From Blasia pusilla (Eukaryota): 64,000 nucleotides of DNA. The position numbers and the translations under genes were made by a program. The stretch's first letter is position 1. Every line of letters starts with the position of its first letter. The notes under the pieces are model-generated. The model was not told where the DNA came from and made no database searches. It saw only the letters and a list, made by a program, of their open reading frames with translations. The stretch is taken from positions 17,298,001-17,362,000 of the forward strand of contig CM114271.1 of NCBI GenBank assembly GCA_050084515.1, given 5' to 3'. Of the stretch, positions 1 to 21,700 are shown in pieces.

Positions 1-2
1 AG

Positions 3-960
3 GGCATTTGTGTGTTAGATCTCTTTGGTGGGATTAGCACTGGTTTGGCTGCAGTGTTGTAGGCCGGTATTCTTATGCGGAGATACGTGTATGTGGAGCG
101 AGATGAGACGGCCCACAGAGTCTCATCCCGACATATTGGTCAGTTGATGCGGAGATATCCTGAGTTGTTGCCGCCATTAGCTATTCGTGGGTACCAGCGT
201 GCTTTGCCGTCACACATTGCATTGTTGGGGGCGCAGGACCTTGAGAGGGTTGGTCTTGTGGATTTGGTGATTTCTGGATGGCCATGTCAGGGTCATACAC
301 GTGCAGGTCGTGGTGAGGGATTACACGACCCTAGGTCTCGATTTGTTTTGGGAGATGTTACGGGTGTTACGACATCTTCAGGTTCATCACACACGTGCTC
401 TAGCTTACATTCTGGAGAATGTTCCATTGTTGGATGACACTCGGACCCGGATGATGGCGAGTGTTCATAAGGTGTAGTGTTGGATTGGACCAGCAATGTT
501 TTTGGATGCAGCGCGAGTTGGCTCGCGTGCACATCATCCACGTTTGTGGTGGACAAACTTGTTGCCTAGGGAGGTTGTACGTCGAGCATATAATGCAGTG
601 CAGTGGGATCCTTGCCTTACAGTGGATAGTATCTTGGATATTGGGCGACTTTCTCAGGTGGTGAGGGTTATTGATCGATCACCCATGGCAATGGTGAACC
701 GTGTGGGCCAGCCTAGGATGACACTACCCACATTTGTGAGTTTTCCCTTGTCACATGCCTACAGGGAAGGTGGTCCCGAGCTTGTATGGGATTCTCATGT
801 GCGACAGTTGGTGGAGCCTAACGCTGATGAGAGAGAGCGTGCGATGGGATTTGCTACTGGTGTGACAACGGTTGCTTCCATTTCTGAGGCTTCACGACGT
901 CATGTGTTGGGTCAGGCCATGGACCTGAATTGTTTGACCTGGATTTTGAGTCTTGGTATG
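3..960 (+). pseudogene. C5 DNA cytosine methyltransferase domain inside the retrotransposon (stops, one frameshift ~345)
   Basis: Motif I VLDLFGGISTG (from nt 12), motif II YVE, motif IV GWPCQGH (~276-296), motif VI YILENV (ENV 415-423), motif VIII HHPRLWWTN, motif IX ERERAMGF, motif X LGQAMD, all in canonical order. Confidence 0.9.
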
Positions 961-1340
961 GCCGAGTTGCGTCGACTTCGGACTATGTCTATGGGTCTTC
1001 CACCCCTTGTGATGAGCTCGATGACTACCGGGATGGTAGAGACATCGGCTGAGGGCGAAGAGAATAGTATTTTGCATCCTTGGAGTAAATGGGATGTAAT
1101 GGATGGGCATGTGGAGTTGGTTGCTCATGCTGGTGGAGGAGTTATTTGCTCAGATGATGGTGTAGCTAAGGGTGTACCATCTTGTGAGAAGGTTGCATAG
1201 CAGCCAATGGCGTCGTCCTCTCCCTCTAGTGTGCCAGTGGAGGAGACTTGGGAGCCATTACTTGGGCCCAAGCTTACGGGAGGTGAGAAACGACGCTTGA
1301 CACAGTTCCTACGTGCTTATAGGAGTTTTTTTCCTTTAGC

Positions 1341-4300
1341 ATGAAGGAGTTGGATGCTTTGGTTGGACCCCATATACGGATTGATTTGGCTAGTGATACG
1401 CCAATCTTTCGTCGTCCCTACCGATATAGTGATATGGAGAGGGATCTGATTCAGAGTAGGACATTGGACCTTTTAGAGGCTGGATTAGTGGAGTTGTCGC
1501 ATGGAGAGTATGCATCAGCCACTGTCATGCCTGCTAAAAAGGATGTGCAAGAAACTACACGGATAGCCGGATGTGTGGAGATTACCGTCCTATCAATCGG
1601 CAGACCAAGGCCGATAGGTATGCCATGCTCATACCTGAGGATATCTTTGATGTGGTGGGACAGGCAAAGATTTTCAGTACTTTGGATCTTCGAGCAGGAT
1701 ACCATCAATTGCTGATTCGAGAGAGTGACAAGGCCAAGACAACATTTTGGGGTGTCAACTCTCATGGCAAAGATTGTTTGTACCAGTGGAAATTTGTACC
1801 CTTTGGGTTGAAGAATGCACATGCCGAGTTTTAGAGAGTGATGGACAGGATCCTAGCAGGGTTGGATTTTGTTCGGTATTACATTGATGATATCTTGGTG
1901 TTCAATAACACGGTGGAGGAGCATCAGATACATTTGCAGATTGTGTTTGAGCGGTTGAAAGCTCATGGTCTACGTTTGCATCCAGGAAAGTGTAAGTTCT
2001 TCCATGAGGATGTGGAGTACTTGGGTCATGTGATCTATCCAGGTGGTTTGGAAGTTCAGCATACAAAGGTGGAGGCTATTGCACTTATTCCTCGTCCGGT
2101 AGAAGTGAGTAGAGTTCGGGCATTCATGGGATTGCCGAACTACTATCGAAGGTATGTGAAGGGATTTAGTGCTATGGCAAAGCCTTTGCACTAATTGTTG
2201 AAATCAGATCAGGAGTGGCATTGGGGAGATGATCAGGAGAGAGCTTTTGTGGAGCTCAATGCCCAGTTGGTGGCGGCGCCTATCTTGAGGAGACATGTCA
2301 GAGGGCGCCCATTTCAGTTACACACTAATTGGAGTAGGTTGGGACTTGGAGCGGTGTTGACACAACATGATGATGAGCACATGGAGTTTGTGGTGGCCTA
2401 TGCAAGTCGTTCGAATAATGCAGCGGAGTCGCGCTATAGTTTATATGAGGGAGAGTGCTTCGCAGTAGTGTGGGCTGTTGTCGCGACCCTCATGACCAAA
2501 CAAGTGCCAAGCGGAACATCGGAACATTAGCAGACTCACGCTAAGATGGTTTGCGCGTTGGAGTTGTCTCAAAGAGGAGACAAGAGACGAGACGCGAGCG
2601 AGGAGTCGCGTTTCAGGTGTTATGGTCGCGACTGAGAAACCTGGACCAAACGCGGAATGAGACTTGAAAGAAGTCGAGTCTAGGAAGTGGGTTGCCAAAA
2701 GGAAGATCCGGATTTGGAACGCCACTAGCGTTTGAGAGTTTCCGACTGTATTTATGGCCATAACTTTTAGCACCAAGATGCGTTGGAAAGCTTATAGAGA
2801 TCCGGTCCAAACGCACCAAAGATCGCTGCAAACGCATAAGCAGCAGCCGAGATACGACCCAAAAACGACTGTGAGTGGAGTCGGGTTGAGGGCCACAGTG
2901 AAGGGCCCGACCCTCTTTTCCCAAAGGGGAGGGGTTATTGGAGAACCCCAGAAGTACTAGTAAGGGGGAAGGTCTCCGAGAGTGCTTGGAACCCAAACCC
3001 CACTTTGGGCGCCATGGGCGCTCAAGGGCATGGAACGGAACGCGAATTTGGGCGTTGGGTTGGAAAACCTGCACCAAGTCTATTGAGGCGATTTTAGACA
3101 TCCCTCTTGGATTTCACGCCGCGACTCAATTACTTGGGTCTTGGTTCGGAACTCACCCAAGGACCGTTGAACAGTTGGGATCGCTAGGCGCGCAAGTGCC
3201 GTTTCAGATCCCTGGACTAACCAGGAAGTCTGTTCCAAGTCTTGAAGGACTTGCCATGTTTTCGAAGCTAGGAACTAAGGAAGGTTGAGCTTGATGAGAC
3301 GCCGAGTTGAGGACTCGGTGGGTTGGAACGCCGGTTGGCCCAAACCCGACTAACGAGAGTGCGTGTTTGGGTGCAGATCGGCGATGAGTTCGTGACCTAC
3401 TGAACGCACGCTTCCGCAACACTAAAGAATGACGTTCAAGGAGAGTAGGGCGCGATAGCTGTGGCACACTTTAGGTGTTACTTGTTTGGCACATAGTTTA
3501 CCCTTGTTACTGATCACCAGCCGCTCAAGTGGTTGATGGAGTCTGACAAGCTTACAAGAAAGCTTGCACGGTGGGCTCTTATCTTACAGGAATATGACTT
3601 CCATGTGGTACATAGACCTGGAGTTGCCAACCTTGATGCTGATGGATTGAGTAGGAACCCATGTACTAGCCAAGAGGATGCAACTGGGGCTAGATGGCAT
3701 GGCGAGGTTGATGAGGAGATGGTGTCAGGTTGGCATGCATCTGCCTTTTTATGTTGGTTAGGGGTGGACTCTAGTATGGAAGACCATATGACATCTTACT
3801 CTAGTCAGAGGGTGGATGGCCAGCCTTTAGATCCTAAGGTTGGAGATGGTGGTACGGATCAGCGTGATATTCATGATGATGCGTTGGTGTTGGAGTTCCT
3901 ATGGACAAGTAGGATGCAAGGCATAGTGAGTGCCAAGGAGCGAGACCGTGTTCTTCAACGTGCTAAGAGATATCGATTGGAGGGAACACATATTCTCCGT
4001 GTGTGGGAGGATGGTAGAGTACGATTAGTGCCGCATTTGGCTCAGAGAGAGCGCATTGTGCGACATGCCCATGAGGAGTTGGGACATTTTGGGATAAAGC
4101 GTACGTATAGCTTACTCCTTGGCCAATATTGGTGGTGTGGCATGCATACTCAGGTGCAGCAGTTGGTGTCACATTGTATGGTTTGTGACCGGCTGAGGGC
4201 ATCATTCAATGCCCCTACACCATAGTTACACCCTTTGCCTATTATGGGGTTGGGTTACCGTTGGAGTGTGGACTTTGCGGAACCGTTACCGTTGACTCTA

Positions 4301-4960
4301 CGACATTATCCATATGTGTTGGTGATGGTGGAGCACTTCTCCAAGTGAATTGAGTTGGTGGCATTACCTGACAAGGCAAGTGACGGAACGACATATGTGT
4401 TTATTGATAGAGTGCTTAGTCATTTTGGTGCACCAGCTGAGGTGCTGACCGACCAGGGTACAGAGTTTCAGGGTGAGTTTCAGGTCTTGTGTGACAAGGC
4501 GTTGATTGATTATAACATCACGTCTCGAGATCATCCAGAGGCGGATGGTTTGGTTGAGCGTGTGGTTCACACAGTGAAGAGGGCATTGCGCAAGTATGGC
4601 CTATAGAAGGGGCATCTGGGAGACTGGGATATTCAGTTGTCATGATTAGCCGTGGGATATAGGTTCAATTGCCAAGCATCCTTGGCTTCCTTCTCACCTT
4701 ATTTGATGTTAAACGGCCGAGATCCAGACTTGCCAACAATAATTTTTCGGGAGTCTAGTGAGATGGTGAACCTTGATGACCTTGAGATATGGATGAGAGT
4801 GTGTTCTCAACGGGCAGAGTTTTTTCGGAGAGTTATGCCAACAGCCTTTGAGAATCTTGCCATTGCTCAACACAGGGATATGTTGCGGTATGCAACCATT
4901 CGGGATGGAGGTTATCGACCATCGATTTGTAGGTTCCATGTGGGGGACTATGTCTATTTG
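1341..4960 (+). pseudogene. Gypsy pol: reverse transcriptase, RNase H and integrase (interrupted by solo LTR 2479-3457)
   Basis: ORF pieces 1341-1715, 1571-1834, 1838-2194, 2195-2478, 3533-4225, 4355-4606, 4652+ join into one pol reading; removing the insertion and one TSD copy restores AVVWAVAHFRCYLFG. Confidence 0.93.
2479..3457. mobile_element. Solo LTR (979 bp) nested in the RNase H region
   Basis: Starts TGTCGCG, ends CGCGATA (decayed CGCGACA); perfect 5-bp TSD GCTGT at 2474-2478 and 3458-3462; homologous copies at 35.5-41.4 kb. Confidence 0.93.
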
Positions 4961-5164
4961 CAGCAGATTGCGCCGACAACGTTGGATGTGGCGGCAGGCC
5001 GCACTATTTTACGAGTGCGCGAGGTGTTAGCTTCTGGAGTTCTCATGTTGGTGGGTCGTGATGGAGTTGTTTGGAAGGACCACGTGCGTAATTGTGCGTC
5101 GTGTCATCTTCCAAATGTGGATAGTACTGTTGACCCACGCTTAGCCATGATACGTGCTAGCTTG

Positions 5165-5300
5165 AGGTGCATGTTGTGTGGGTCTGTTGGTAACGTAGCC
5201 CATATGTTGGTGTGTGATCGGTGTTCTAGGGGTTGGCACATGATGTGTTTGACTCCACGTATGGATGTTGTTCCTATTGGAAGGTGGGTTTGTGTACATG
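5165..5300 (+). other. PHD finger (C4-H-C3 type) at the C-terminus of the retrotransposon integrase
   Basis: CMLC-x8-LVCDRCSRGWHMMCL-x9-RWVC at the end of ORF 4652-5326; last Cys not in frame. Confidence 0.85.
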
Positions 5301-5386
5301 CACCCACGAAAGTGTATAGCATGTAGTAGATGTATAGGGCTATCTGGGAATTAGAGGGACCTAACCGCTATTTGGGGGGGGCGAGT

Positions 5387-5738
5387 TGTGGTACACTTAT
5401 GTTTGTGGATGCTCTCGTCTATGTTATGCATGTAGGTGAGTATGGTATATCAGCAATGTATGTTGTATAACGATGTGGATTCGTACGACACTTGTGAGTG
5501 TAACCCAAGTCTCTCCTTAGGAGAGTGGGTTTGGTTTGACATTGAGAAAAGACATGTCAAAATGCACACATGTGAGAGCTATGGTGTTGTGAGAGAGATT
5601 TGACCTTATTTTATTGGAGATATTTTGGTACTTCTCGCCTTTGTGTTTGGATGCCATGAGTTAGCATGCGATTGTGCGTGTTTGTGTGTGTTCGGCGACA
5701 GTAATGTATGTTGTGTACCGACGTGTATGTGCACAACA
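5387..5738 (+). repeat. 3' LTR (~352 bp) of the DNMT-Gypsy element
   Basis: Directly follows the PPT; TGTGGTACAC...GTGCACAACA imperfect terminal inverted repeat; internal direct repeat CAG(C/T)AATGTATGTTGT at ~5451 and ~5699. Confidence 0.75.
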
Positions 5739-5870: not shown

Positions 5871-6544
5871 GCAAAAAGAACTTAAAAATCTGGTTCAACA
5901 TCCCATTGACGTAAGTGCATCCCATCACTAAGATCTTGTTGATACTAAAGGGGCCAGGTACTAAAATACCTTCCCCGTGACGGTATTTTCACGAGTCCGT
6001 CGCGACGTAACTAACCGCCTGAAAGTGGTATATATCTGGAAATCATGCCGACGACCAAAAGCCGACCCGGCATTGGCGGGGCCCGCGCAGACGGGCGGCT
6101 CTCAAATTGCGCGAATACTTACAGGACTGTCCTCAGCGTGCGGGTAGACTTCGACAGACATTTGTGACAGTTTGACATGTAACTTGACAATGCTCTACAG
6201 TGATGTCGCTCGTGTTTCAGGACTCGTTTTAGCAGATTGTAGACCACATTCTAATGAACGTTAATGTGTCCAAAACTCACCTACAGCCGCTGCAAACGAA
6301 AAGTTATAGGGGTTGTTGAAAGAGCCACGTGATTGTATTGTCCTCTTGACTTGGTTTGCGTGACGGATGGTCTCACGATGTTCTCAGGGATTGAGTTGCT
6401 CGTGTGTCTCTGATTGCAATTAGGTGCGAGTCCTGTGAAAATAGATTATGGTTGTAGTGGAGAAGAGCATCACAGCTTCGTCTCGCAACACAATTCGCAG
6501 GAGTGGTAGGATATACATTTTAGTGAACCTATCCTGCAGGTGTT

Positions 6545-9500
6545 ATGGCCTTCGTTGATCTGAACGATTCTCAGGCACGTCAGCGGATTGAACGAAAGCG
6601 CTTCTTGGAACGGAGAGTGGTGGAGACTCTAGCCTTGAAACCGCCAAAGCCTGGTCCGCTTTTGAAGGTATACTCCCGGATCTAAAGCAATGATATGTAA
6701 ATAATCTTGCTACCACCAGGTTACTACAATAATGATTTGTTGGAGCAGCGAAGATAACTAGCAAGCAGCACTTTGAGACATAAAATCTTCTCACCTTTGT
6801 CAAGTTAGCTCGATGTTGGTGATACGGGAGAGCACTTTACGAGTCCCACCCGGATATGTTCGACCTAGTTCAGCTGTAAAGACGCTCGATTGGCAGATCT
6901 ACGCTCCTGTCATCAGTCATCTGCGGGGATGGCCACACACCAACCGGGCTACAGATTGAACAAGATTTTAAACACGGCATTACCGCCTGCCCTAATCTTT
7001 GTTTTCCTTGCACCTTTCGTCCTACTAAAGCGTTGAAAGAAAAAATTGGAATGGAGATTCTAAAGTCGGCAAGAATATTCGATAGTCCGGAGGTTACCTT
7101 GCGCACAGGTTCTCGAAGACAGAAAATGGCGCTTCCAGCAGAAAAACCATGAGATTCCAATAGAAGCGGAAGACTTGTTAGAAAGCTCTTTCGGTTGACA
7201 TCATTAATGCACATGCTTTGGACGCAAGATGAATTTTTGAGGAGTCCATGTGAACAGCACAAATGGATTCGGTCCACGGATGGCCGGTCGAGGACACTTT
7301 CGCACATGGATGCAGGCTGTGGAAGAAATACTGGACATGAATAAAAGAACTTGGGGAACCCATCGCAAGGGGAAGGAGGGGAGACTCAGCGAAAAGAGAG
7401 AGAGAGAGAGAGAGAACAATGGAGGGAGACATAGATCCAAGAAAGAAGAGGCCTCCAGCTCTAACTCCAAAAATATTTGCAAAGCTAATGCAGGGGCAGT
7501 TTCTCGTGAAGGGAACAGCGATCAGCGAGGAAAATCCCGCCTCCGGATGGCGTAACGAAGTGATATACAGTCTGTGAAAGTAGACGTAGGTTGGTTCCCA
7601 CACGGCAACAGTTTTTAAGCCGAAAATTTTCGAGGCATCCCATCCAAGACAAAATTGGATGAAGTTCGTCCATTAATTTCATTCTAGACGTGTGCCTGAG
7701 TTCAAGTAATGAAGAGAAGGCATTGAAAGTATAAAAGGGATCGACCATCAAAGAAAGCAGAAGGGAGACTCAAGGAATCGAGCACCAACACGCCCACAAC
7801 CACAGAGTAAAGTCGGCTGAGTCCATGACAATGTGACAGAGGAATCGTATCTGTCCATGGAAGACATCCTCGAAACAGAAATGCGAACGAAACCTAAGCG
7901 AGTGTAAAACGAGGAGCAGGTGTCAGGGCGGTGACGGTCTCTTCTTAATACTGTCTCTGCTCTGCAGGAAACGGTTACCGGTGTCTTGTCAGGGTTGTCT
8001 TGTTGGGAAGAGTGTTCCACTGGTGCAGACCCGTTGACTCATTAAATTCCACAGGGAAAAGATATATGACAGTTTAGGGCAATTCGCACTAACCTGTCAT
8101 TCGTTGTAGGAAGGCGAACATGGAACTTACAAGCTTAGTCCAGATGAAGAGCAACAGGCCGTCAGTGAGTACCGAAGGAGATCTAGACAAGCGCGAATTT
8201 TGCAGGTGTCCTCATCCCAATTCCTGTTTCACCCTTTCTCACCGTGCATTCGATCAGTAACTATCTTTAAATCTAAGTTAGCCTTTGAGACGTTTTCCAG
8301 AATCCATTGCGTATTCAATTTGTTCATGTTTTTGCCCGCGCCATGCTTCGCGATCCTCTTATGCTGTGTGAGGGCTTCTCACCTTTAGACTCCATTATAA
8401 AAGATGCCACCTCCAACAGTATCGGCGTAAATTCCAACAGTATCGGCGTTTTGATTTGATTCTGCAGGTGCGGGCTCAAGAAATGTTACTTGCAGCAGAA
8501 CGAGTTGGAGAATTTCGTGAGCGCAAAAAGAGGGAGAAACAAAAACTGCTGCAAGTACTAAAGGTATCTGACTACAACACACTCTGTGAAATTCCTCACT
8601 TCTTATCTAAGTTGCATTGCTGCATACCCGAAGCACTACGCTTTTGAGGCTAGATGTCCTCCTTTGGTTTAATCGTCCCTTGTCCATGTTCACAAAGAAG
8701 AGAATCGAAACAACGAAACTTTTGTCAGCACGTCTCAAATAACGCTCCCATCGAAAACTTTTGTCCTTCCGTCGACCCTCTCAGTCATTGAGTTTCAGCT
8801 GCATTTGTCGTCACTTTAGGAATGCCCCTGGCCCTCTCTTTTTTGTCGAGTTCTTTGTTTTCTAAGATGAGACAGTAATTAATTGCCCATGAACGGAATG
8901 GGTCCCAGACATGGACCCAATGATTGTCATTTCTTGTAAATTTTGGTATGTACGGTAAGATGTTTCAAAAAACTTTCATAGCGAACAGAAAACTGAAAAT
9001 CATCTCGGTTGATTACTCTGGAGAGATATTCCTGGAGGGAGCGGGAAGTTTTAGATGATTGACATCTGATATGAAAAAAATTCTGGTAATTAAAATCGGT
9101 GAGACATTTCCGTGAAAGACTTTTCGAAGATGGAAATCTGATCCAAAGACTTTTCTAGTGAGGAAAAGCTGAGATGAAAAAATTACCAATTGGATGCTTA
9201 GGAGAAAATTTCGAAAGAGGGAACTTTGACTCGAAAACATTTGCAATTGGATATTTCCCACAGTGTAAATGTGATCTGAAACATTTTCCATTGGGTATTT
9301 TCGATAAGCTCAACAATGGAAAAATTCCCACATCTGAAATCTTTACACACATGTCAACATCCTGGAGTTTAACGTGGGAGGTTCAAACACAAACAAGAAT
9401 ATGGTCAGTTGTTCTTCTCTATTTCTCCCGCCATGAAATCCCACAAACTCTACTTGGAAAGGCTTGGAAGAGTTTATTATAAAACTTGGTGGTTCATCTC

Positions 9501-12500
9501 ATCTATTCCTTGCAAGATGATCGCACATCAGAAAGGCATCCTTGACTTCACAGTAGTTAGTTTGGTTACCTCAGCACTTCAGTAAAGGATCGTTTCGAGC
9601 TGATGTCATTCGTATAGTGGTGAGAACGATCAGGTTTTCAAACTTGACAAGATTCTAAAAACTAGAACCATATCGTTGACGTGGTTGGTCAATGAGTTGG
9701 TGAGCAAGTTTGAAACGCGTAATGCTTATGATTCTAGTCTTGTGACTAAGAGTATGTTGGAAACGCAGGAAGCATGGAAGGAAGAGCAAGGAAGACGAAT
9801 TGCTGACCTTGAAGGTGACTTTGTCCACTTTTACAAGGGCATTGGACAGAGTCACGATGCTGCTCAGACTGTGTCACAGAAACTGGTGAGTGCTTACAAA
9901 GTCTTGAAGTTGGAAGTTGATACTAGGCCGTGTCAGAAGTCCAGGAAGCTGGTGCCCACTTTGGCCTGTACATCTGCCGCTTGTCCGGATGGGAAATGGA
10001 GCTCTTTCTCAGGTCTCCATCTTTCCCTTTCTAGCTGAAAGAGAGATTCCCCGAACCCCAAGTACTCCTCATAGTGAGAATTTTGTGCTTCATCTCACTT
10101 CAGCTGGTCAGGACGTCATACAAACCTCCCACCCCATCGACTTGCGGAGTTAGTGGCTAGCCGTATCTGAGCGAAGTCAGCGACTAGTTCACCTTCGCGA
10201 GTTCAAGCCGGACAAACTCCTTTCGGGAAAACTTTGACATGCCCTATTGCACTCATCCACACAAATGAATTGAACAGTATATTATTGTTTTCTCTGTCCA
10301 TGACTTTCTCTGTGCATGTTCATTATGATTTAAGCTTTGGGACTGCAAAAAATACTTCCATCACCTTCTCTTGCTTGACCTTATCATAATGACTAGACCC
10401 TATGAAGCTGTTAGGCAACTGGCTCTCTTTGCAGGCAGAAGTGGCAGAAAAGAAGGCTAAAGAAGCTGAAGAAAGCAGAATATGGGAAAAAATGCGATTT
10501 CAGAAGGCTATGCAGGAGGTGAAGCCCTCTTTCTGCGTGCGTGCGTTTTAGACAGAAACGAAGCTTTGTAGATTTCCTTCTTCCAAACTCCAATTCCCAC
10601 CCAGAGTGATTCAAAATTAAAGGTAACCGAGATTGTGATGTCGATTTTTTCGAAGCATGCTAAGTGAGCAGCCCACATTTACGAAGGAGTTTCTGTAGAC
10701 GCTAACTGGAAAGTAGTAGAGTGGAAGACCAACTCTGAGAGATAGAAATGTAAAAAATGAAGGGGTCCGGTTTCAAGAATTTCCTATGCGTTTGCGTTGA
10801 TTTTAACACCACCAGATTCTTGCTAATTGCTTCCCCACCTGTTAATTCTCTATATCAAGTTACAAAAGGAACACTAAAGTGGTCGACAGAGGACTTCCAT
10901 CAAGGCTTTGACTTCACTATACCATATCTTTGAGGCTTCTTCTGATATCTAGCAGAAGAAAATAGAGTCAGTATCCACCCACTCTCAATTATCTTGTTCT
11001 TATGAGCTCTGGGCCACAAGGTTTTATACAACTCCACTTGTGGATACATCCATTGAAACATCATATTAGAGAAGGTGCACTAATCAATTCTGCTTGAGAT
11101 TGCACGGCATACAATCAGTAATATAGTAGGCTTGAGTCTGACCTGGCAACTTTTCCATTTTGCTTCTTGTCAAGGAAATCGCTCGGAAATCAGAGGCTGG
11201 ACACGAACAGAGTTTTGCCAAGGAGCGGAGGAAGGTTGTGAACCATGTAGCAGCTCTTGATCGACGACGCGCACGGTGCTTTCATGCTTTTCATGCAAGG
11301 TCTGAAATAAAACAAGAGAAGAAGCATACTGCAAGTGAAGGTAGCTATGTATCTGTCACTTTCTTCTATGCGTACTAGACATGTCAAATAAATAGCTGAA
11401 CTGGCCATAACATATTTTCGTGACCATGCTAACTCAAATGTACAAACACTATCTCTCCATGGAGACTCCCTCCCCCTCCTTCAACCATTGCCCCCTAGTT
11501 TGTGATCATTAATTCGCATCTCCATTTGCAGCCAAACGTGGCCTTGAGGTTCAAGGTTAACGATAAACGATTAACCCGGATCCCACATCTTAAGCAAGTC
11601 CCATGTTTGATCCGCCGCGCGTGAGAGTTGCCTACGTCCTGTTGAAATCAGAATTCTACTTCCTCACAGATCTACTTTTAAAACTTTTAAAAAGATAGAA
11701 AGATAGTAGATCCTGACAGGATCTTCCACTGAACCATGTACATGAGGGTAATCACTTACAAACCTGAAAAGAGCAAATCTGAAATGGATTGCATGTAGAA
11801 CTGATCTACAACTTCTATTGAGAACTGGGTGCTTGAAAAGCAACACCTTATTAGAATACACAAGTCCTGAAGAGAGGTGGTTGAAACCAAGATGCAGGAG
11901 TTTGTGCTAGATTGGTTCTTGGAGCATTCTCCACACCAATGCACATTCCTTCTTAGTTGATCAAGGCACCAGCAGAGGTTCCGGTATGTAGGAGCTAATC
12001 TCAAAACCCACAGTGAAGTGAATCAAAGAAGAAGGGAAGAGAGGGGGAGTTAAATAGTTTCCTACAAGAGACCAGCAGAAGGGACCACTGCATGGTAAGG
12101 CAAGGTGGAGGGGCCAGCACAACAGGAGCAGGCCAGCACATTATGAGCAGGACAGCACAACAGGCCAGCACACCATGTGCACAATTAAACATAATCAAAA
12201 CTCACAAGAGTAGTAAAAGAGGTAACTAGTAAACTAACTGAGACTTGTAACTATGATAAACTTCCAACCATAGTTTGCAGAACTAACCATAGTTAAAAAA
12301 CTGGAAGAAAACAGCAGACAATTTTATGTGATATCCTAACACGTCCCTCCCTCTCTAGCTAGGCCCCATGTTCCTCGTGCTTCATGGTCACCCACAAATT
12401 TTCATGATGACCCGGTGTCTCATGGGCCATTCTGCTTGCAGAACGTGACTTGACTCATATAACATGGGCTCACTTTAGAAGTGATTCATGGCTCTGGCAT

Positions 12501-13976
12501 CTTTCTTGTCGAGCGCCTTGGTCTTCAAGAGCCAACTAAACCCATGGCATTCACACACATCTTGGTTAGTCCATCTTATGGGCATACAAGACTTGGTTGA
12601 ACATTCAACGCAGAGAGTCCATCCTTACATTGATTTTGTACTGTTTCATGATGTTAAAACTAAATGATGAACATTTGAAACTCATAATGGTCCTACATAT
12701 TAGTGATAAGTAGAGGAGTTGAAAGAGGAACGGGTTTCGATTCAAGGCAGAATTTATTTACTTACCTTTCAAAATGAGGAGGTGAAAATGGGGAAATTTA
12801 AAATGAAAGGGGACAGTGACGAAATTTAAAATCAGAAGTGGATTAAGGAAGAAGGAACCCATGGACTTGTTTCTCCAAAACGAAAGTAAAGGGTATGTTC
12901 GTAATCTCCGACTTTTATGGTTTAAGTCTTGAGTCATGATCCTCGAATTTCTTCTCAACCCAATTTCTTCTTATTTAAATTTGGCAGCTATCCTTCACAA
13001 AGTGCCAATGTTGCACATGCTTGTCGCAATGGCCGAATGTTCTTGCTCGTCTTCTATCTTCACACACCAGGATTCACCCTCAGCTTGACTCGAGCTTTCG
13101 TAGTTTGTGCAGAGGACCCAGGAAGCTTCCTGCATATTGATTTCAATAGTCAGGATATCAGAAGAAATTTCATCCAGTCACGAATGCCCGGGGCTCCCAG
13201 TGATTACAAGGATACATACTTTCACTCCCGTTTTAGTATCTTCAAGGATCAGAGCAACCTTGGTCAATGCCCTGAAGATTCTGATCGACATCACCACGAA
13301 GCTGAGGTAGATGCCTGGGAAGCTGCGGAAGTTCGCATGAAGACTGTGGAACTGGAGAAAGAACGCAAGGCCGAGATAGACGAAGTATGGAACAAACGGA
13401 GGACTCAGAGAGGACAGACAGCAGTAGCTCATCTTCAGGTAGAGATGCTGCAGCTACTTTTCCTATCTACTAATGCACTAAAATCTCATTTAGTTATAAT
13501 CGTTCAATCCTGTCAAGTACCGTGAAGTACTGGGGAGGAAATTAAGGCTTCTATGCTTGCGGTAGGTAATCCATTAGGAACTTAAAAAAAGTGTTTTCGC
13601 TCCTTCCAGCAAAACTCTGACCAGAAACATACAGTATCCTTCTTGTTGTTGGAAATTTATAGTTACAAGGGAGTTTCACGCACACATGCCTTTCATACAT
13701 ATTTTCATGAGTGAAGACATAGTCGAACTATTTGAAAGTTCATAACAAAAAGTATGAGTTGAATCTCTAATTGGGAAACGTAGATTTTGAATGCCCCTTT
13801 TCTATTGCAGAAAACAGCTATGCTGGAAGCAGAGCTTGCAGTGGAGTTAGAGGAGGAGAAAGAGAGAAAGCGCCTACTGGACCTCATTGAAGAGCTGAGT
13901 ACAACTGTACACCCTCCTACGTACAAGCCTGATGTAATGGGAAGTCTCCAGACGAAGTGGTTGCGTCCCAATGAAG
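6545..13976 (+). CDS. CEP295/Ana1 (DDC8-like domain) centriolar coiled-coil protein, N-terminal exons: 6545-6667 (tentative), 8110-8205, 8468-8563, 9769-9885, 10435-10518, 11175-11340, 13113-13438, 13811-13976
   Basis: GT-AG junctions give one open frame: YKLSPDEEQQAVSEYRRRSRQARILQVRAQE...LKEAWKEEQGRRIADLEGDFVHFYKGIGQSHDAA...DAWEAAE...QRGQTAV, which parallels the animal CEP295 N-terminus as I recall it (LSPNEE...RLLQVREQE...EWEESQ...MGEGHRQA...DARLAAEEE). Confidence 0.72.
11640..12341 (-). mobile_element. Solo LTR, intronic, copy A (702 bp)
   Basis: TGTTG...TAACA ends; 5-bp TSD CGTCC at 11635-11639 and 12342-12346; reverse complement of 14986-15760. Confidence 0.92.
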
Positions 13977-14985
13977 GTTGTTACATGAAAGTGAATGTTC
14001 TTCCTCTGCTTGTCTTGTGTGCACTCTGTCGTTCAATTCTGTCTCCGTTGTGTCTTTCAGCTGTTCGCAACATCCGAGGTATAAGTACAACTCTTAATGA
14101 GTGGCGTACTTTCATTCTTATGTGCTTTGCAAGCGCATCGACTCATTTTCACATGCTTTCCCTATCACTAGGGTCTGCCTGTGGATCGATACTTGCTTTC
14201 CAATTTACCTCGAATAATTAGGTCCTTAATCAATGTTTTGAGGTCCTTAGTTATTGAAAACATGCCTACAAGTCTCAAAATTCAGTGATGTAGAAACAAA
14301 CAAACAACTCCATGTAGAGTTGGTCGTGTCTCTGCTGCCCTAGGAATTGTGTAGAAAAGATATAGCATTACTTGTGAAGGATTTTATCCAGAAAACTTCT
14401 GTCACTTCAGATTTTTTCCACTGTAAGTTTTGGTACTCTTTGTTTGGCCTTCAGCAACTGCAAGGGTTAAATGCAAACTTGAGGGACAGGCTTGAAGCAG
14501 TGTCCCAGAATGCACAGAAGCCATGACATCCGCATCCTCTGAAGCAGCCAGTCTTAGGAGTGAGATTCACTTCTGGTGTGACGATTCGTCAGTCCCATAA
14601 GATCTACAAAAACTCAAATGGTCGTAGCTGTACAGGAATTTGAAAATGACCACGACCCAAAACACCACTAGAATTTGGAATAAGTACTTAGTTACTGGTA
14701 ACATTAGGTTCCTTCGATTGAAAACCAATTTGAACAAAGAGGAAATATCTCTTGCCACTAGAATTTACGAAGTTTTTTCAAAGGCTTCTAGTCAAGAGGA
14801 ACTCCAAAATGTGTTGATACTTAGAGGCATTTTTAGTCTCCGATTTCATTTCAGATTTATTATGATGTAGGATAGATTTTTAACCAGAAACGTAGAGTAA
14901 CAAACTTCTATACTCTAGATACATAACTCAGTGTAGCTGTTTAGATCATTTTAAAAAAATTCAGGCAGAACGTGCATACAGAAGG

Positions 14986-15760
14986 TGGTAGGATTTCACA
15001 TAAAATTGTCTGCTGTTTTCTTCCAGTTTTTTAACTATGGTTAGTTCTGCAAACTATGGTTGGAAGTTTATCATAGTTACAAGTCTCAGTTAGTTTACTA
15101 GTTACCTCTTTAACTACTCTTGTGAGTTTTGGTTATGTTAATTGTGCACATGGTGTGCTGGCCTACCCTTGTTGTGCTGGCCTGTTGTGCTGTCCTCCCC
15201 CTGTTGTGCTGTCCTGCTCATAATGTGCTGGCCTATTCCTGGTGTCCTGGCCTGCTCCTGTTGTGCTGGCCCTTCCACCTTGCCTTACCATGCAGTGGTC
15301 CCTTCTGCTGGTCTCTTGTAGGAAACTATTTAACTCCCCCTCTCTTCCCTTCTTCTTTGATTCACTTCTACTCCTGCCCTCTAAGGCTGTGGGTTTTGAG
15401 ATTAGCTCCTACATACCTGAACCTCTGCTGGTGCCTTGATCAACTAAGAAGGAATGTGCATTGGTGTGGAGAATGCTCCAAGTACCAATCTAGCACAAAC
15501 TCCTGCATCTTGGTTTCAACCACCTCTCTTCAGGACTTGTGTATTCTAATAAGGTGTTGCTTTTCAAGCACCCAGTTCTCAATAGAAGTTGTAGACCAGT
15601 TCTACATGCAATCCATTTCAGATTTGCTCTTTTCAGGTTTGTAAGTGATTACCCTCATGTACATGGTTCAGTGGAAGATCCTGTCAGGATCTACTATCTT
15701 TCTATCTTTTTAAAAGTTTTAAAAGTAGATCTGAGAGGAAGTAGAATTCTGATTTCAACA
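14986..15760 (+). mobile_element. Solo LTR, copy B (775 bp), inverted relative to copy A
   Basis: TG...CA ends; 5-bp TSD GAAGG at 14981-14985 and 15761-15765; near-identical to copy A apart from two indels. Confidence 0.92.
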
Positions 15761-16430
15761 GAAGGCAGACTTCAGATGAGAAGTAAACTGACTTAAGTAA
15801 CCGTCTGCAAGAAAAAGTTGGAGACTTCACTACAGTATTACCAACAAAAACGATAATGAGTTAGAGCATATTTTTACTCAAACTCTCCCTCTGCACAAAC
15901 TCTTCCATACAGGAACTGAAATGTTGCCACCTCAAGCATCACATCAACGTCAGAAGCACAACAGGTCGTCCAATGGATCCTCCTCCCTAGACGTTAAGAT
16001 ATCATCTACCCTGTCCACAGACGCATCGCCCCGGAAGTCATGTACAGTATCCACTAATGAAACTGTCCAAGTAGGCTATAAGTCTGTCGCAAGGGAACAC
16101 AGGCAATCCGGCATAATTTTGTCGATAGTATGCCCTAACTGGCGGATGGCATGCATTCACACTTGATGCAGACTTCTTGGGATCCTGGTTAAGGCCCACG
16201 ATCAAACCTCTTCACCAGGGTGCCAGGATTGAAGAACTGAGCAACCGTCATAGAGAACTTGGGACATGCTGCCAGATCATTTGTAGTTCGGCATCTAAAA
16301 AGATGACCGGGATCACGTCCACTCTTCTTGATTGATGTGGCTCTGGGCCTGGTAACTGTAAAGTTGGTACACTTCTACAAATGTCTCGGAGGTTGCTGAG
16401 ACCTGATGAGCTGGACTTCCCAAAACAAAA

Positions 16431-16606
16431 TGTTTGTATATTAAAGAATTGACCCTCACAGCGAATATCAATATTTTGGCTTTCTCAAGATAAAGACTCA
16501 GGTCTCAAATTTGTGTTTGTATATTAAAGAATTGACCCTCACAGCGAATATCTATGGGCCTTCACAGTATTTTGGCTTTCTCAAGACTCAGACTCAGGTC
16601 TCAAGT
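16431..16606. repeat. Imperfect tandem duplication (~83-93 bp unit)
   Basis: TGTTTGTATATTAAAGAATTGACCCTCACAGCGAATATC at 16431 and ~16514; TTTTGGCTTTCTCAAGA...GACTCAGGTCTCAA also repeated. Confidence 0.85.
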
Positions 16607-18650
16607 TGATGTTAACACATGGAAGCATGCTTGAAGTAGGTTATCCCTGAGCAAGCAGCCTTACTGTATCAACTTCGCGATCAGTATGTTTTGGTGTATA
16701 TTCGCGGTCAACATTATGACAAGGTGCTTGGATCTTTAAGTCCTGACAACCTGGTGGAGAGATGTAATTGTAAGCCTTTACCACGAGGTAAAAGTAGCCT
16801 GGACTGTATGTAGAGGTGAAAGTATGCCAAGAAGTCCATGACATTGATCATGGATTGAAATTGAGTCTTGATAGCCCACCAGAAAACTGCTCAAACATCT
16901 GGCATTCAACAGCCAAAATTAGGTGAAACTTAATTTTTGCTTGAGTTACTGATATCAGATAGTTTAGTCCATCGCTGCTACTTTCCTGAACTTTGATTTC
17001 ATCCAAGGTTTCTCCTGAGAAGATCTTGGCTAGTGACACGACACCCCTTCGCTTAGAAGGACGAATTGGAGCATCACTTGGAAGGCGAGTCAGATATTTT
17101 TCCAGAGTTAGATAGGCCCAGTAATTTTGAGATAAGAGTTATAGGCCAAAAAAAGAGTTCAATTCATGAAATACTAAACGATAGAGGAAATGAAGGAAAG
17201 AAGTCTCTTGGTTCCAAGTGTCAGACTGTACTCACTAAGGAGTGCCTGTAGTGTAGCCTTGCGACCATAGACCCAGTGCCCTGCTGCTTGGTTGGACGGT
17301 GCTAGAGAGTTGTATGGGTGCAGAGAGAGGAAAATGTGAATGGGGTACCATATACGAGGGAGGTTCCAAGTGTCAAACAGACAAAGAGTAGAATGATGGC
17401 AGAGAAAGTGGGTTCCTACTGTTCTGCTTTACGAAACCAGTTTCCCTCAAGAGCCTGTACCCAGCATTCTACTGTCCCTGTGGTCATCCTTGAATGTGGA
17501 TATTCATCAAAACATGAAATAGAAGTCCCTTCCGGATAAGGACTAATGTGTGTGCAGTTCTATTACCCTCTTTGTCATGCGATTCCCTCAATGTTTTATG
17601 AAGATCCAGAGCTGGATTTCCTCCAGTCTCCACCACTCCTGGACCGGTCTTCATGCATATTGAGTGGCTCATTGAAAGTAAAAAGTCATTTAGGGCTTTC
17701 TCCAAGGGCTGTTATGGAACCTCCGCATTGGTATGTATCCCATTCAAAATTTGACACCGGCGTAGTAGTTGGACAACAATGAGAAAAAATACAGTTCATT
17801 ATACCCCAGTTCTACCTATGTTCCAAGGTAGCACAACAGAATATCCGAATGATATTCGCTAAGCTAATCAATTCATAAGTTAAGTCTTCCTTAGAACCCA
17901 AGAGCGAAATACTGGCACCAAGCCCTTTGTTGTTGACAGCTAGCTTTCTGTCGTTATTGTGAGGAGCATATGACTGCTTCTAGTGAGCTTCTCTGTCTAT
18001 AATGGTAAGAACCTTGACTGTTGGACTATCCACAAAACTTACTGCCCTGCGTATATTTAATGTGGAGCTCCTTCAATTACACTGTGTCGTTTCACTTAGT
18101 ATTTGTAAAAAGGAATCGCGGACGTTTGCCTTATGTAGAGGTCTGTACTTCGCGAATTCTTCGGAGTTTTTGAAACATTGACACAATGACTTGTCCTCAA
18201 CCAGTCTCTGGGATAGCATAAACGGCTGAGGTTCTTGTTCACCATAAAGCAGACAACTGAAAGAAACTTGGGCTTCTTGCAATGCCCCTGCAGGTGTGGT
18301 CCTGGACATCAACCATACGCCCTCCAATCGTAGCCTACCACCAAGACCAAAACCTGAATGGCAGACCAAGGGGGAAAGGGCAAAGTGGAACAAATGTCAT
18401 ACAGTGTAGACTTTCCAGAATCTTCCCTCCATTTTGGGAAGGTTGACAAACTCCCCTGGTATGCCACTTACCATCTTGCGTGTGCTTGAGTCGGTGCCTG
18501 AAAGGATCTGGACTTATCTGTCCGATCTGTGGCTTGAACCTGGAAAAGCAAAGACTAGCGTTATGTCCATCATTGGCGTTTGTCTTAGACGCATTTCTTG
18601 TTATATTTCTCAAACCCTGGCCGGGGTGGGATATATACTGGATTAGATAA
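16600..18650 (-). mobile_element. Highly degenerate non-LTR (LINE-like) ORF2 relic
   Basis: Minus-strand fragments in LINE ORF2 order: KTGPGVVE (KxPGxDG-like, ~17650), PITLISK (RPISLL-like, ~17135), LAKIF (~17025), VVKAYNYI (DxxKAYD-like, ~16775); boundaries uncertain. Confidence 0.5.
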
Positions 18651-18701
18651 TCCCTACGCTAATTTAGATGATCTCTAACGCTGATTTATGATCGTTGCCA
18701 G

Positions 18702-21700
18702 CAGAATTCGAGGGAGCAAATGCTGCTGCAGTAGAAATTTGTGGTGATGATGCCATGGTTGGAGCAAACCCCGATACAATATCTACCGGAGAAGCTGGTG
18801 TCTTGGATGTAGGATCAACACCACCAGCTCAGTTAGGAGACGTGAGTGAACAGGCGCAAATTGTTGAACAACCAGAAATGTCAGTTGGCGATGCTGAAGC
18901 TCATAGAGAGAGTGCTCAACAGAATGAAAGTAAAGATGAAAGTAACGATGAAAGCAACCTTATCGTTAGTGGCATGCATGATGATCAAGTTGTGTCAACT
19001 AAAGTTGCTACATCGAGGAAGCGTAGTACTATGGAAGATATGAAGTCGAGCTCTCATGCTTCACGCGTGAACATAACTGGGCTTTCTCTTAATCGACTAC
19101 ACGGTAGACTTAAGGACGAGGTTACCGGGTACTCTATCAATCCGATAAAACCCCCTGGCTGTACCCCAAGAGGTCAAAATGCATGTGGAAGTACCAAAAC
19201 GCTGAAGGACGGTAGATCGGGTTCACAAGTCCCATCCCTGCCCAACTTTAGTAGAAATAAGAGTATTAGGAAAGGAAACAAAAGTCCTCAGAAGGTTGAA
19301 AGCGTTTGTAAGCAAACATCCAAATGGCCTGATAGCCAGGAAACAGGTGAACAGAGTAACGAGTTGAGGAAAGTGCCAAAAGTTTTGGGGAAAGATCAAG
19401 CCAAGGAATCAGCAGAGAACTTGGAGACATCACTCGACAAACGGTCAGGTTTGCCAGCTTGCTTTCCACAATATGAAAGCTGTACACCAGAAGCAAGGAG
19501 GAAGTCTCCAAGAAGACCGAATGGCACTTGGCTTTCCAACATATTCGACAAGCTGACCTGGTGGAAAAGCGATGCCACTAAGAAAGACCTTCCCAGCTCG
19601 TTGGTTGCAATTATCGGAGAGCAAGCCGAAGGTGTAGGGTCTAGTTCAGGTGGAAAAAGCTGCAGAGTCGCTGCCACAGATGTTGGGAAAGAGACAATAT
19701 CCAGATTAGATCCGTTGAATCAAACCGATGGTTCCAAGTGTGAAGTGCAGCAGCTCATCAGGAAGAAAACACCGATCACATTGGGGAGCGTTGGAGAGTT
19801 CGAGACTTTGAAAGAACCTCAGCAGCGGAATGATGAACAGACGGAGCGGTTAGAAGTTTACACGACGGAAATCTTCGGAATGGAGGAGTTGGAAGCCTTA
19901 CGGTTGGAACTTTATGGTCCGCGGACAGGTACCCCAAGCCACAAAAAGGTTAGACCTGACAAAGAGAAATCCATGCCAGTCTCCAGTAAACAACGCGACA
20001 ATTCTGTGGTGTGTGTGGAGCAGTGTAATGACCCAGTACCCAAGTGTAATGACTCAGTACCCAAAGCACACTCAATTGATGGACGCAGAAATCCATCAGC
20101 CATTGCCCAAAGCAAAGAAAAAGAATTACCACAATCCGGTGCTCAGAGAGCCAGGAAAGACTCTACAACTCAATACACTTGTGGAATGTTTGAGACCGAG
20201 TGTTTTCCAGACACGAAATCTGCGAAAGGAACAGCCGAAATAACTGGAGTGAAAGGCGACGTGTGCAGCAGGGGGGCTGACAGCGAGCCTGTGGAAGTAC
20301 AGAAGAATAACGATGTTCTCGTAGAATCCAGTGGCCGTGGCCAACTTCTAGAGTTCCCAGGCAAACCACCACCAAATTCCCAAAAGCATTGTGTGTCATC
20401 CACTTTTAATTCAGTTGCGACAGTAGGGAATGAGAGCGGGGCACCAACTGAACCAATGTCAGCTCGTGAGGTGGCTGAGAAGCTTATTCGTGCTTGGAGG
20501 GCAGGGCAGCTTGGTGGAAATGTCGACACCACACTCGAGCGAGCTCGACAAAAGCTTACACCGATGTCAAGAAAGAGGAGAGCAAGAACTGATGAAGAGC
20601 CACACTTCAGTGCCAGTCTGACAGGGACGACACTCAAACTAGAACACCTCCGAGGGAAGATTAATAACAGACCATCACAGACTAACACAACAAAACTCAG
20701 AAAGTCGCGAGCGTTTGCTTCATCCCAGAGTGCTGTTTTGCAAGAGAAAAAGCAACCCAACACCAAGAGTTTATCTGAAGGCAAGGAAATTGCTAAGAAC
20801 TCAAAGACACCCTCAGAAAAGCTTCAGATTCCTAGCAAACTAACCACGCAGCATTCTCAATCCACTCGGGAAACTAAAGCATCAGAAAATAGTTGTGTTC
20901 CAGATATGAACCTGAAAGTAGAGGACATTGTTCCAGAAGCAAGATCCTTAGACTTTATCCTTGGCTCCCTCTCTGCACAAGTCAGAGAGCTGGATGAAAG
21001 GCTCCGAAATGTTACTTTTTCTTGCTCGAGAGAAACCACGGACTCTCTCGTTACTGATGCCTCTAACCTATGCGAGGAGCACAAGAGCTCTTCAGATCCT
21101 ACAGAAGCCATGTCAAACACAAAATTGGCAAGTACGTTAGGTGTTATTGGGAATAAAACACGACCAGAGTTGCAATCTTCGGGTAGCAGAGAACCCGAAA
21201 GATTGAAAACTACTCCAAGCCTTACTCCAATCGCAGAAGAGAGCGTACATAAAGGGAACGCTCATAAAGCAGTGCCATTGAATTCACCAAAAACTAGCAA
21301 ATACAAATCTAGCAGGGTAGATGGAAAATGTCCTTCTCCGCAAAAATGTCAGGAAAGAACTTTTCTCAGTGCATCCAGATCAACAGCTATTCGGGACGGC
21401 CGATCACCAACTTCTTCTTTGGGGGTTTGTTTGGAGGATATGGCTGACCTTGTGAAAGAAATGAATGGGTTACCTGCTTGTGAGAAGATACGAGCTCAAC
21501 TGGCACAGGATTCCTTGCTGGTGAGTCTTCCTAAATGGACTGAAACCGATGCCATTCAGGCCAGCAAGCAGGATGGTAATTTCTCCGAGACCGCACTCTC
21601 TACTGCCACAAAAACTACCAAAAAGTGCTTGCTGTCTCCCGTGATGATCCAATACGGCCGAGACGAGGCAGTTGATCCCTCCAGATCATATGCTGAGATG

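Follow-up and report, generated by a model that had tools for sequence, protein, structure and literature searches.

A liverwort gene of Blasia pusilla with the N-terminal domain of the centriole protein CEP295

For the liverwort Blasia pusilla, a stretch of 64,000 nucleotides (assembly GCA_050084515.1, contig CM114271.1, positions 17,298,001 to 17,362,000 of the forward strand; hereafter the window) was examined regarding a gene that starts at position 6545. The initial annotation had proposed interval 6545-13976 to encode a plant homolog of the centriole protein CEP295/Ana1. The locus is an intact, transcribed nuclear gene of the liverwort. On sequence grounds there is hardly any doubt that residues ~45-375 of its product are homologous to the N-terminal DDC8-like (CEP295NL) domain of CEP295. 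From the same comparisons we consider it rather probable that the protein is the green-lineage counterpart of animal CEP295/Ana1, that is, an orthologue with a role at the centriole or basal body. Thus, the proposed homology was borne out for the N-terminal domain by hhalign, by an animal hidden Markov model (HMM) and by controls. The full layout of CEP295 was not recovered: neither an ALMS motif nor any alignable stretch beyond the domain was found.

Orthologues of the protein were found in other liverworts. With exon 7 as query four longer proteins were matched: Mapa_000871 of Marchantia paleacea (a fragment of 366 amino acids, aa), MPTK1_5g11210 of Marchantia polymorpha (1,771 aa), a protein of Calypogeia fissa (1,666 aa) and R1flu_016372 of Riccia fluitans (1,719 aa). 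Exon 7 is 62-63% identical to the Marchantia orthologues. A wider search also detected an orthologue in Riccia sorocarpa, and full-length orthologues are present in four liverworts (M. polymorpha, C. fissa, R. fluitans and R. sorocarpa). These were word-indexed protein searches that scored up to 8,000 candidates, and the matches listed were liverworts, three unnamed proteins and one fish. Identity to the M. polymorpha orthologue was 40% over residues 1-1665, and 59% over the N-terminal fragment. A liverwort profile of the region beyond the N-terminal domain gave 716.8 bits on the window protein (residues 439-1699). All liverwort orthologues are labelled 'hypothetical' or unnamed, so they are modelled without a functional name. 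The description of the gene as under-annotated finds no support in this form, as gene models exist in M. polymorpha (MPTK1_5g11210), Riccia and Calypogeia; only the functional name is missing.

The relationship to CEP295 was investigated with alignments of both groups. For the four full-length liverwort sequences against 12 animal CEP295 proteins, hhalign returned a probability of 99.0 and an E value of 9.4e-18 over 286 columns with 27% identity. The match spans query positions 43-375 on template positions 9-302, and the conserved blocks occur in the same order. With the N-terminal alignment alone, the true score was 144.3, compared with 30.2 after reversal and 27.4 for the best of 30 column shuffles. 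An N-terminal HMM made of animal sequences only gave 56.1 bits on the spliced 391 aa of the window; none of 1,000 shuffles of this peptide exceeded 2.6 bits. On the four full-length liverwort orthologues the same HMM gave 39.8-63.9 bits.

These controls also bear on a different explanation, in which two charged helical regions resemble each other as coiled coils by composition and without common ancestry. In this region E, R, A and K are abundant, long single helices are predicted for it, and both the per-exon Pfam scans and a sequence search of the PDB were empty, as a resemblance of this kind would allow. However, neither the reversed and shuffled profiles nor the shuffled peptides came near the true scores, the blocks keep their order across all 286 columns, and the 15 long matches described below are all of one protein kind, none of them a generic coiled-coil protein. 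Thus, on the failed reversal and shuffle controls and on 56.1 against 2.6 bits, a merely compositional coiled-coil match is ruled out, and resemblance without descent is regarded as very improbable.

Homology of the N-terminal domain was further supported by a search starting from liverworts. A profile of the N-terminal 350-380 residues of five liverwort proteins only (A2) was searched without word index against 1.84 billion representative proteins (cut-off E<=1e-3), and 55 matches were obtained, roughly 25 of them non-animal. Fifteen of them have a length of at least 1,127 aa (1,127-2,405 aa). All but one of these long matches (14 of 15) were aligned within their own first 25 residues, to profile positions ~40-207; P0032, the fifteenth, has a sequence that begins inside the domain and was aligned in the second block. 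The Pfam ALMS motif was detected at the extreme C-terminus of seven of the 15 above the cut-off and of one below it, and in none of the other seven. An N-terminal domain combined with an ALMS motif far C-terminal is the layout of CEP295. The profile search, named in the initial annotation as a check, led to CEP295-type proteins matched at their N-termini and not only to generic coiled coils.

For P0030 the Atlas clusters are named 'Centrosomal protein of 295 kDa' (score 0.96) and carry PF28375, CEP295NL, on 100% of their members; the ALMS motif is borne by 24-72% of the members in CEP295 Atlas clusters and is not universal in the family. The fish protein P0061 has PF28375 and a name beginning 'centro...'. 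Among the liverworts, a precomputed match to PF28375, for which the Atlas name is CEP295NL, exists for the Calypogeia orthologue. Furthermore, five unnamed proteins (P0012, P0013, P0018, P0027 and P0044) had near-equal scores under both HMMs, liverwort and animal, and thus bridge the groups.

The Pfam library used for the scans holds no model of PF28375. For this reason the orthologues P0002-P0004 gave nothing in Pfam at E<=1. Per exon and in the large open reading frames (ORFs) of the window only sub-threshold chance matches to DUF4224 and Sas10 occurred, and none in exons 9 and 10 (E<=10). The PDB sequence search with the N-terminal profile had 0 matches at E<=1.

The sequence blocks on which the initial annotation relied could be traced on both sides. 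Those of the window (KLSPDEE, ARILQVRAQE, EAWKEEQ..IADLE..IGQSHDAA and DAWEAAE) are all present in the translation. The CEP295 partners quoted for them are found in proteins of the family: RLSPNEE, LRLLQVREQE and AEWEESQ in P0055, QKIQNLE in P0029, GEGHRQA in P0030 and DARLAAE in P0031.

The N-terminal domain of the Calypogeia orthologue was modelled with AlphaFold2 from an alignment of 34 rows. The model comprises a short helix (8-28), a helix of 160 residues (51-210) and one of 83 residues (285-367). In both long helices nearly every block of ten residues has a mean predicted local distance difference test score (pLDDT) of at least 90, and the linker between them (~211-286) is of low confidence. 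The mean pLDDT of the model is 79.5 and its predicted template modelling score (pTM) 0.35. According to this prediction the domain looks like an extended helical rod, which probably forms a coiled coil when paired.

Eight exons within 6545-13976 had been proposed to splice into one open frame. Joined, they give an open frame that begins with the ATG at 6545 and comprises 391 codons; the exons have GT..AG borders, and five of the seven junctions are present in RNA. Beyond this interval the coding sequence (CDS) continues to a total of 10 exons, 5,190 nt and 1,729 aa, with a single terminal stop at 23274-23276. The gene spans 6545-23276 on the + strand (16.7 kb); interval 6545-13976 is its 5' third only. 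All introns of the 10-exon model are bordered by GT..AG. In the stop-to-stop ORF list each exon is merely a short open stretch. Therefore an ORF track would miss the gene, as had been stated. The exons are as follows.

6545-6667, + strand: exon 1, CDS start with ATG at 6545 and GT donor; tblastn with the Marchantia orthologue P0002, residues 1-41
8110-8205, + strand: exon 2, start of the CEP295NL-like domain (HGTYKLSPDEE ... ARILQ); frame and tblastn
8468-8563, + strand: exon 3, VRAQE ... LLQVLK; frame, tblastn and RNA junction 8563/9769
9769-9885, + strand: exon 4, EAWKEEQ ... GIGQSHDAA; frame, tblastn and RNA junctions on both sides
10435-10518, + strand: exon 5, 84 nt, in frame; RNA junctions, some reads skip this exon
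11175-11340, + strand: exon 6; frame, tblastn and RNA junctions 10518/11175 and 11340/13113
13113-13438, + strand: exon 7, second conserved block YKDTYFHSRF ... DAWEAAE ... RGQTA; frame, tblastn and RNA
13811-13976, + strand: exon 8, end of the N-terminal domain; frame and RNA
18705-21785, + strand: exon 9, 3,081 nt, Ser/Lys/Thr/Pro-rich middle; RNA junctions, open frame and tblastn with P0002, residues 455-1477
22342-23276, + strand: exon 10, C-terminal region with stop at 23274-23276; frame, tblastn and RNA

The product of exon 1 is an N-terminal helix kept among liverworts, without an animal counterpart. The block of exon 2 was aligned to animal RLSPNEE...RRRKLRLQ by hhalign and by the animal-only HMM. 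From residue 392 to the end at 1729, S, K, T and P are abundant, and no Pfam family was detected.

Three raw RNA-seq runs with the same species label (X17-X19) and the X2 contigs were mapped to 6200-24000. Inside the claimed interval the GT..AG junctions 8563/9769, 9885/10435, 10518/11175, 11340/13113 and 13438/13811 were found in RNA. Downstream, 13976/18705 and 21785/22342 were detected as well, so that RNA covers seven of the nine junctions of the whole gene. The junctions 6667/8110 and 8205/8468 were absent from those reported in X17-X19 reads and X2 contigs; both are supported by the unbroken reading frame and by tblastn, in which the Marchantia orthologue is continuous over them. First mates on the - strand made up most of the depth and nearly all of the junction reads, which fits a + strand RNA in the majority of stranded libraries. 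Some variation in splicing was observed. Exon 5 was skipped in frame in four reads of X17 (9885/11175). A minor acceptor at 13784, in frame and 27 nt upstream of exon 8, was used in seven X17 reads; in six of these the first mate was a + strand read. One X2 contig joins 9262-9402 to exon 4 (9402/9768).

These alternative junctions, the low RNA depth and the transposon fragments that fill the large introns would agree with a gene copy that decays or is not translated, its open frame being a remnant. In contrast, the CDS of 5,190 nt is free of stops over 10 exons with GT..AG at every intron, spliced sense-strand reads occur in all three runs, and similarity to other liverworts extends far beyond the domain (716.8 bits over 439-1699 to the liverwort profile, 40% identity to M. 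polymorpha over 1-1665), with both green-lineage motifs described below intact. A decayed copy is hence very improbable.

Within the introns further observations were made. Introns 6 and 8 hold two inverted copies of one repeat (11550-12350 and 14980-15760), and the repeat peptide HKLLHLGFNHLSS... can be read at 11664-11906 (- strand) and at 15494-15796 (+ strand). RNA depth over these repeats was 10-60, and the reads show numerous variant letters, indels and loose ends; thus most of these reads come from other transcribed genomic copies. A 30-base island in intron 8 (17252-17283) was covered by ~100 reads per RNA run, with flanks that are unrelated but constant (agreement 1.0). Some reads link 17253 with 23556 on opposite strands. 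The island looks like a short stretch common to an abundant RNA encoded elsewhere.

The part of the protein that follows the N-terminal domain was compared separately. Two motifs of the green lineage were identified in it.

20942-21004, + strand: green-lineage motif 1, RSLDFILGSLSAQVRELDERL, residues 1138-1158; core invariant in the four full-length liverwort orthologues
22404-22496, + strand: green-lineage motif 2, SLSS...DFSPW, residues 1440-1470; kept in liverwort orthologues

A motif LDxxLGxL...LD resembling motif 1 is present in the unnamed proteins P0058-P0060, and motif 2 recurs in the unnamed P0013 of 2,109 aa. In animal CEP295, motif 2 scored no better than its shuffled copies. P0013, P0044 and P0058-P0060 are unnamed, alanine-rich and alga-like proteins of 938-2,109 aa with a CEP295-type N-terminal domain, and some of them also bear the two liverwort C-terminal motifs. 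If they are green algal, the CEP295 family would be present in green algae.

Several results weigh against the assignment as CEP295 counterpart. After residue ~380 no alignment to the 12 animal CEP295 proteins was obtained (hhalign probability 0.04). The ALMS motif (PF15309) was detected neither in exons 9 and 10 of the window (E<=10) nor in P0002-P0004 (E<=1) or P0005 (E<=0.01). As the C-terminus did not align to animal CEP295, the PICA motif was undetectable, in a comparison made without a PICA model or a labelled PICA sequence. For the Marchantia N-terminus, 'CEP295 N-terminal-like' and 'CE295' are among the nearest Atlas clusters, with scores of 0.86-0.87; these lie under the 0.9 line, with an FSIP2 fragment as top match, and are thus a lead only. 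The precomputed match to PF28375 exists for only one of the four full-length liverwort orthologues. The modelled domain consists of few very long helices with a pTM of 0.35, a kind of sequence in which similarity arises more readily than it does for globular folds. Finally, RNA depth over the exons was low, ~1-6 with 6-12% of each run sampled.

Part of these points would also be explained if only the CEP295NL-type domain were common to both groups and the liverwort protein acted elsewhere on microtubules, as a domain relative and not as a functional counterpart. The protein could serve the acentriolar polar organisers seen in liverwort cell division or, in the spermatozoid, the spline and the multilayered structure. 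Everything after residue ~380 is unrelated to animal CEP295, without an ALMS motif. Vertebrates possess a short paralogue with the domain alone (Atlas 'CEP295 N-terminal-like protein'), and several CEP295-like matches have 200-570 aa. Transcription was at a low level in the three RNA-seq runs, and liverwort polar organisers are described as centrosome-like without centrioles (PMC5371999). Against these points stands the position of the domain at the extreme N-terminus of a protein of ~1,700 aa, which is also where it lies in 14 of the 15 long matches. Moreover, no other family occurred among the 55 matches of A2, and it is this domain that targets CEP295 to the centriole in human cells (PMC5007451). 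A mere domain relative is therefore considered possible, though unlikely, and the reading of the protein as CEP295/Ana1 counterpart is preferred.

The protein was compared with known members of the family. As in vertebrate CEP295 (KIAA1731), the DDC8-like/CEP295NL domain is situated at the very start of the protein, and the blocks YxLSPxEE, R(I/L)xQVRxQE, W..EQ...LE, G(E/Q)(G/S)H..A, T-x-(Y/F)-H, DA(W/R)xAAE and RGxxA were aligned in order. The body of both proteins is long and largely non-globular; the placement of the domain at the extreme N-terminus of a mostly non-globular protein, here of ~1,700 residues, agrees with the animal proteins. In contrast to vertebrate CEP295, the liverwort protein has no detected ALMS motif and nothing that aligns with the middle or C-terminal parts of the animal protein, but motifs of its own, RSLDFILGSLSAQVRELDERL and SLSS..DFSPW, which it has in common with unnamed alga-like proteins. 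With 1,729 aa it is shorter than human CEP295 (2,601 aa). It is similar in overall size to Drosophila Ana1 (1,729 aa), a likeness of length and not of directly compared sequences. Fu et al. reportedly found in 2016 that Ana1 binds Cep135 and Asl. As the fly member of the family, Ana1 shares the conserved DDC8-like region with CEP295, and the C-terminal parts of animal CEP295 include the PICA motif and a CEP192-binding region (PMC5007451). The vertebrate CEP295NL (DDC8) has the same domain, and Atlas clusters with PF28375 score 0.87 to the Marchantia N-terminus, which again is a lead only. CEP295NL is short and consists of the domain alone, whereas the liverwort protein has ~1,350 further residues conserved among liverworts.

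A precedent is given by MpBLD10/PpBLD10, the fast-evolving bryophyte form of a centriole protein of animals and algae (BLD10/CEP135), recognisable only by weak similarity (bioRxiv 10.1101/2021.07.25.453666). BLD10 belongs to another protein family, and its function and phylogenetic profile were demonstrated experimentally.

In the literature searched, CEP295/Ana1 is treated as an animal protein. Tsuchiya et al. (2016) state that no potential Chlamydomonas homologue of CEP295 was found (PMC5007451). Table 1 of a survey from 2017 marks Ana1/CEP295 for human and fly only, and not for Physcomitrella or Arabidopsis (PMC5371999). No plant homologue of CEP295 was reported in the literature searched on CEP295/Ana1 together with Marchantia, Physcomitrella, spermatozoids, basal bodies, the last eukaryotic common ancestor or Mp5g11210. 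The family in Pfam 38.1 evidently already touches one liverwort sequence, thus databases hold the link between CEP295 and liverworts implicitly; no paper stating this link was found.

The function of animal CEP295 gives indications for the liverwort protein. CEP295/Ana1 is described as a protein of the proximal centriole wall, required for centriole elongation, stability and centriole-to-centrosome conversion (PMC12704290). Human Cep295 without the DDC8-like domain is missing from the centriole (PMC5007451). Without the PICA region, which comprises 43 aa in the C-terminal part, its localisation in human cells stays intact, but centrosome formation is abolished (PMC5007451). In liverworts centrioles are made only in the sperm lineage (PMC5371999), and the basal bodies in sperm of Marchantia and Physcomitrium require a divergent BLD10/CEP135 (bioRxiv 10.1101/2021.07.25.453666). 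Among the binding partners of CEP295/Ana1, CEP152/Asl and CEP192 act downstream; upstream stands CEP135, as reported in work cited in PMC5007451. The BLD10 preprint further lists 31 candidate groups, expressed in sperm and confined to flagellate plants (bioRxiv 10.1101/2021.07.25.453666). For Spd2/CEP192 a '+' is given in human and fly only, according to Table 1 of the 2017 survey (PMC5371999).

From the observed homology we infer docking, timing and partners as follows. As the domain brings human CEP295 to the centriole, the liverwort protein is most likely recruited by its N-terminal domain. The N-terminal rod would dock it on the wall of centrioles built de novo in spermatogenous cells, by analogy with the animal protein. 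Once docked, it may aid elongation, stability and maturation of the centrioles into basal bodies, and the divergent BLD10/CEP135 of Marchantia basal bodies would be a candidate docking partner. The remaining ~1,350 lineage-specific residues presumably bind plant partners and not CEP192/CEP152. We give about even chances to the complete proposal, in which CEP295/Ana1 is at least as old as the common ancestor of green plants and animals, and the liverwort gene is its functional orthologue at a step after BLD10/CEP135 in de novo centriole assembly, with plant C-terminal motifs replacing the CEP192/CEP152-binding parts. In a bolder version, a CEP295-like protein might also be used in the polar organisers of liverworts, which lack centrioles but are centrosome-like (PMC5371999).

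The surroundings of the gene in the window were inspected as well. Positions 1-5400 (+ strand) contain pieces of a polyprotein of the long terminal repeat (LTR) retrotransposon type, split over several frames. Pfam identified RVT_1 at 1835-2194, RT_RNaseH and Integrase_H2C2 at 3497-4225 and a PHD finger in the ORF 4646-5326. As the polyprotein lies directly upstream of the CEP295-like gene, only ~1.1 kb is left for a promoter. The motif AACCGYC, which we take to be the DUO1-type MYB site, occurs six times in the window compared with 6.8 expected; one copy lies 530 bp upstream of the ATG, and the count has no evidence value. The next gene lies on the - strand and codes for the splicing factor PRP3, with PF08572 (PRP3) and PF06544 (Prp3_C) in the ORF 25732-26595; open stretches up to 28766 (- strand) are probably upstream exons of PRP3. 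Between 30001 and 36000 the G+C content is 0.30-0.36, compared with 0.40-0.50 in the rest of the window, and the ORFs are short and AT-rich.

Taken as a counterpart of CEP295, the liverwort homologue and the unnamed alga-like intermediates would trace the CEP295 family back to the ancestor shared by plants and animals. The ancient part of CEP295 would then be the centriole-targeting N-terminal domain, and lineage-specific parts would be ALMS and PICA in animals and the two motifs in the green lineage. For Marchantia, Mp5g11210 would be a concrete candidate, beside BLD10, for the de novo building of centrioles in the sperm lineage.

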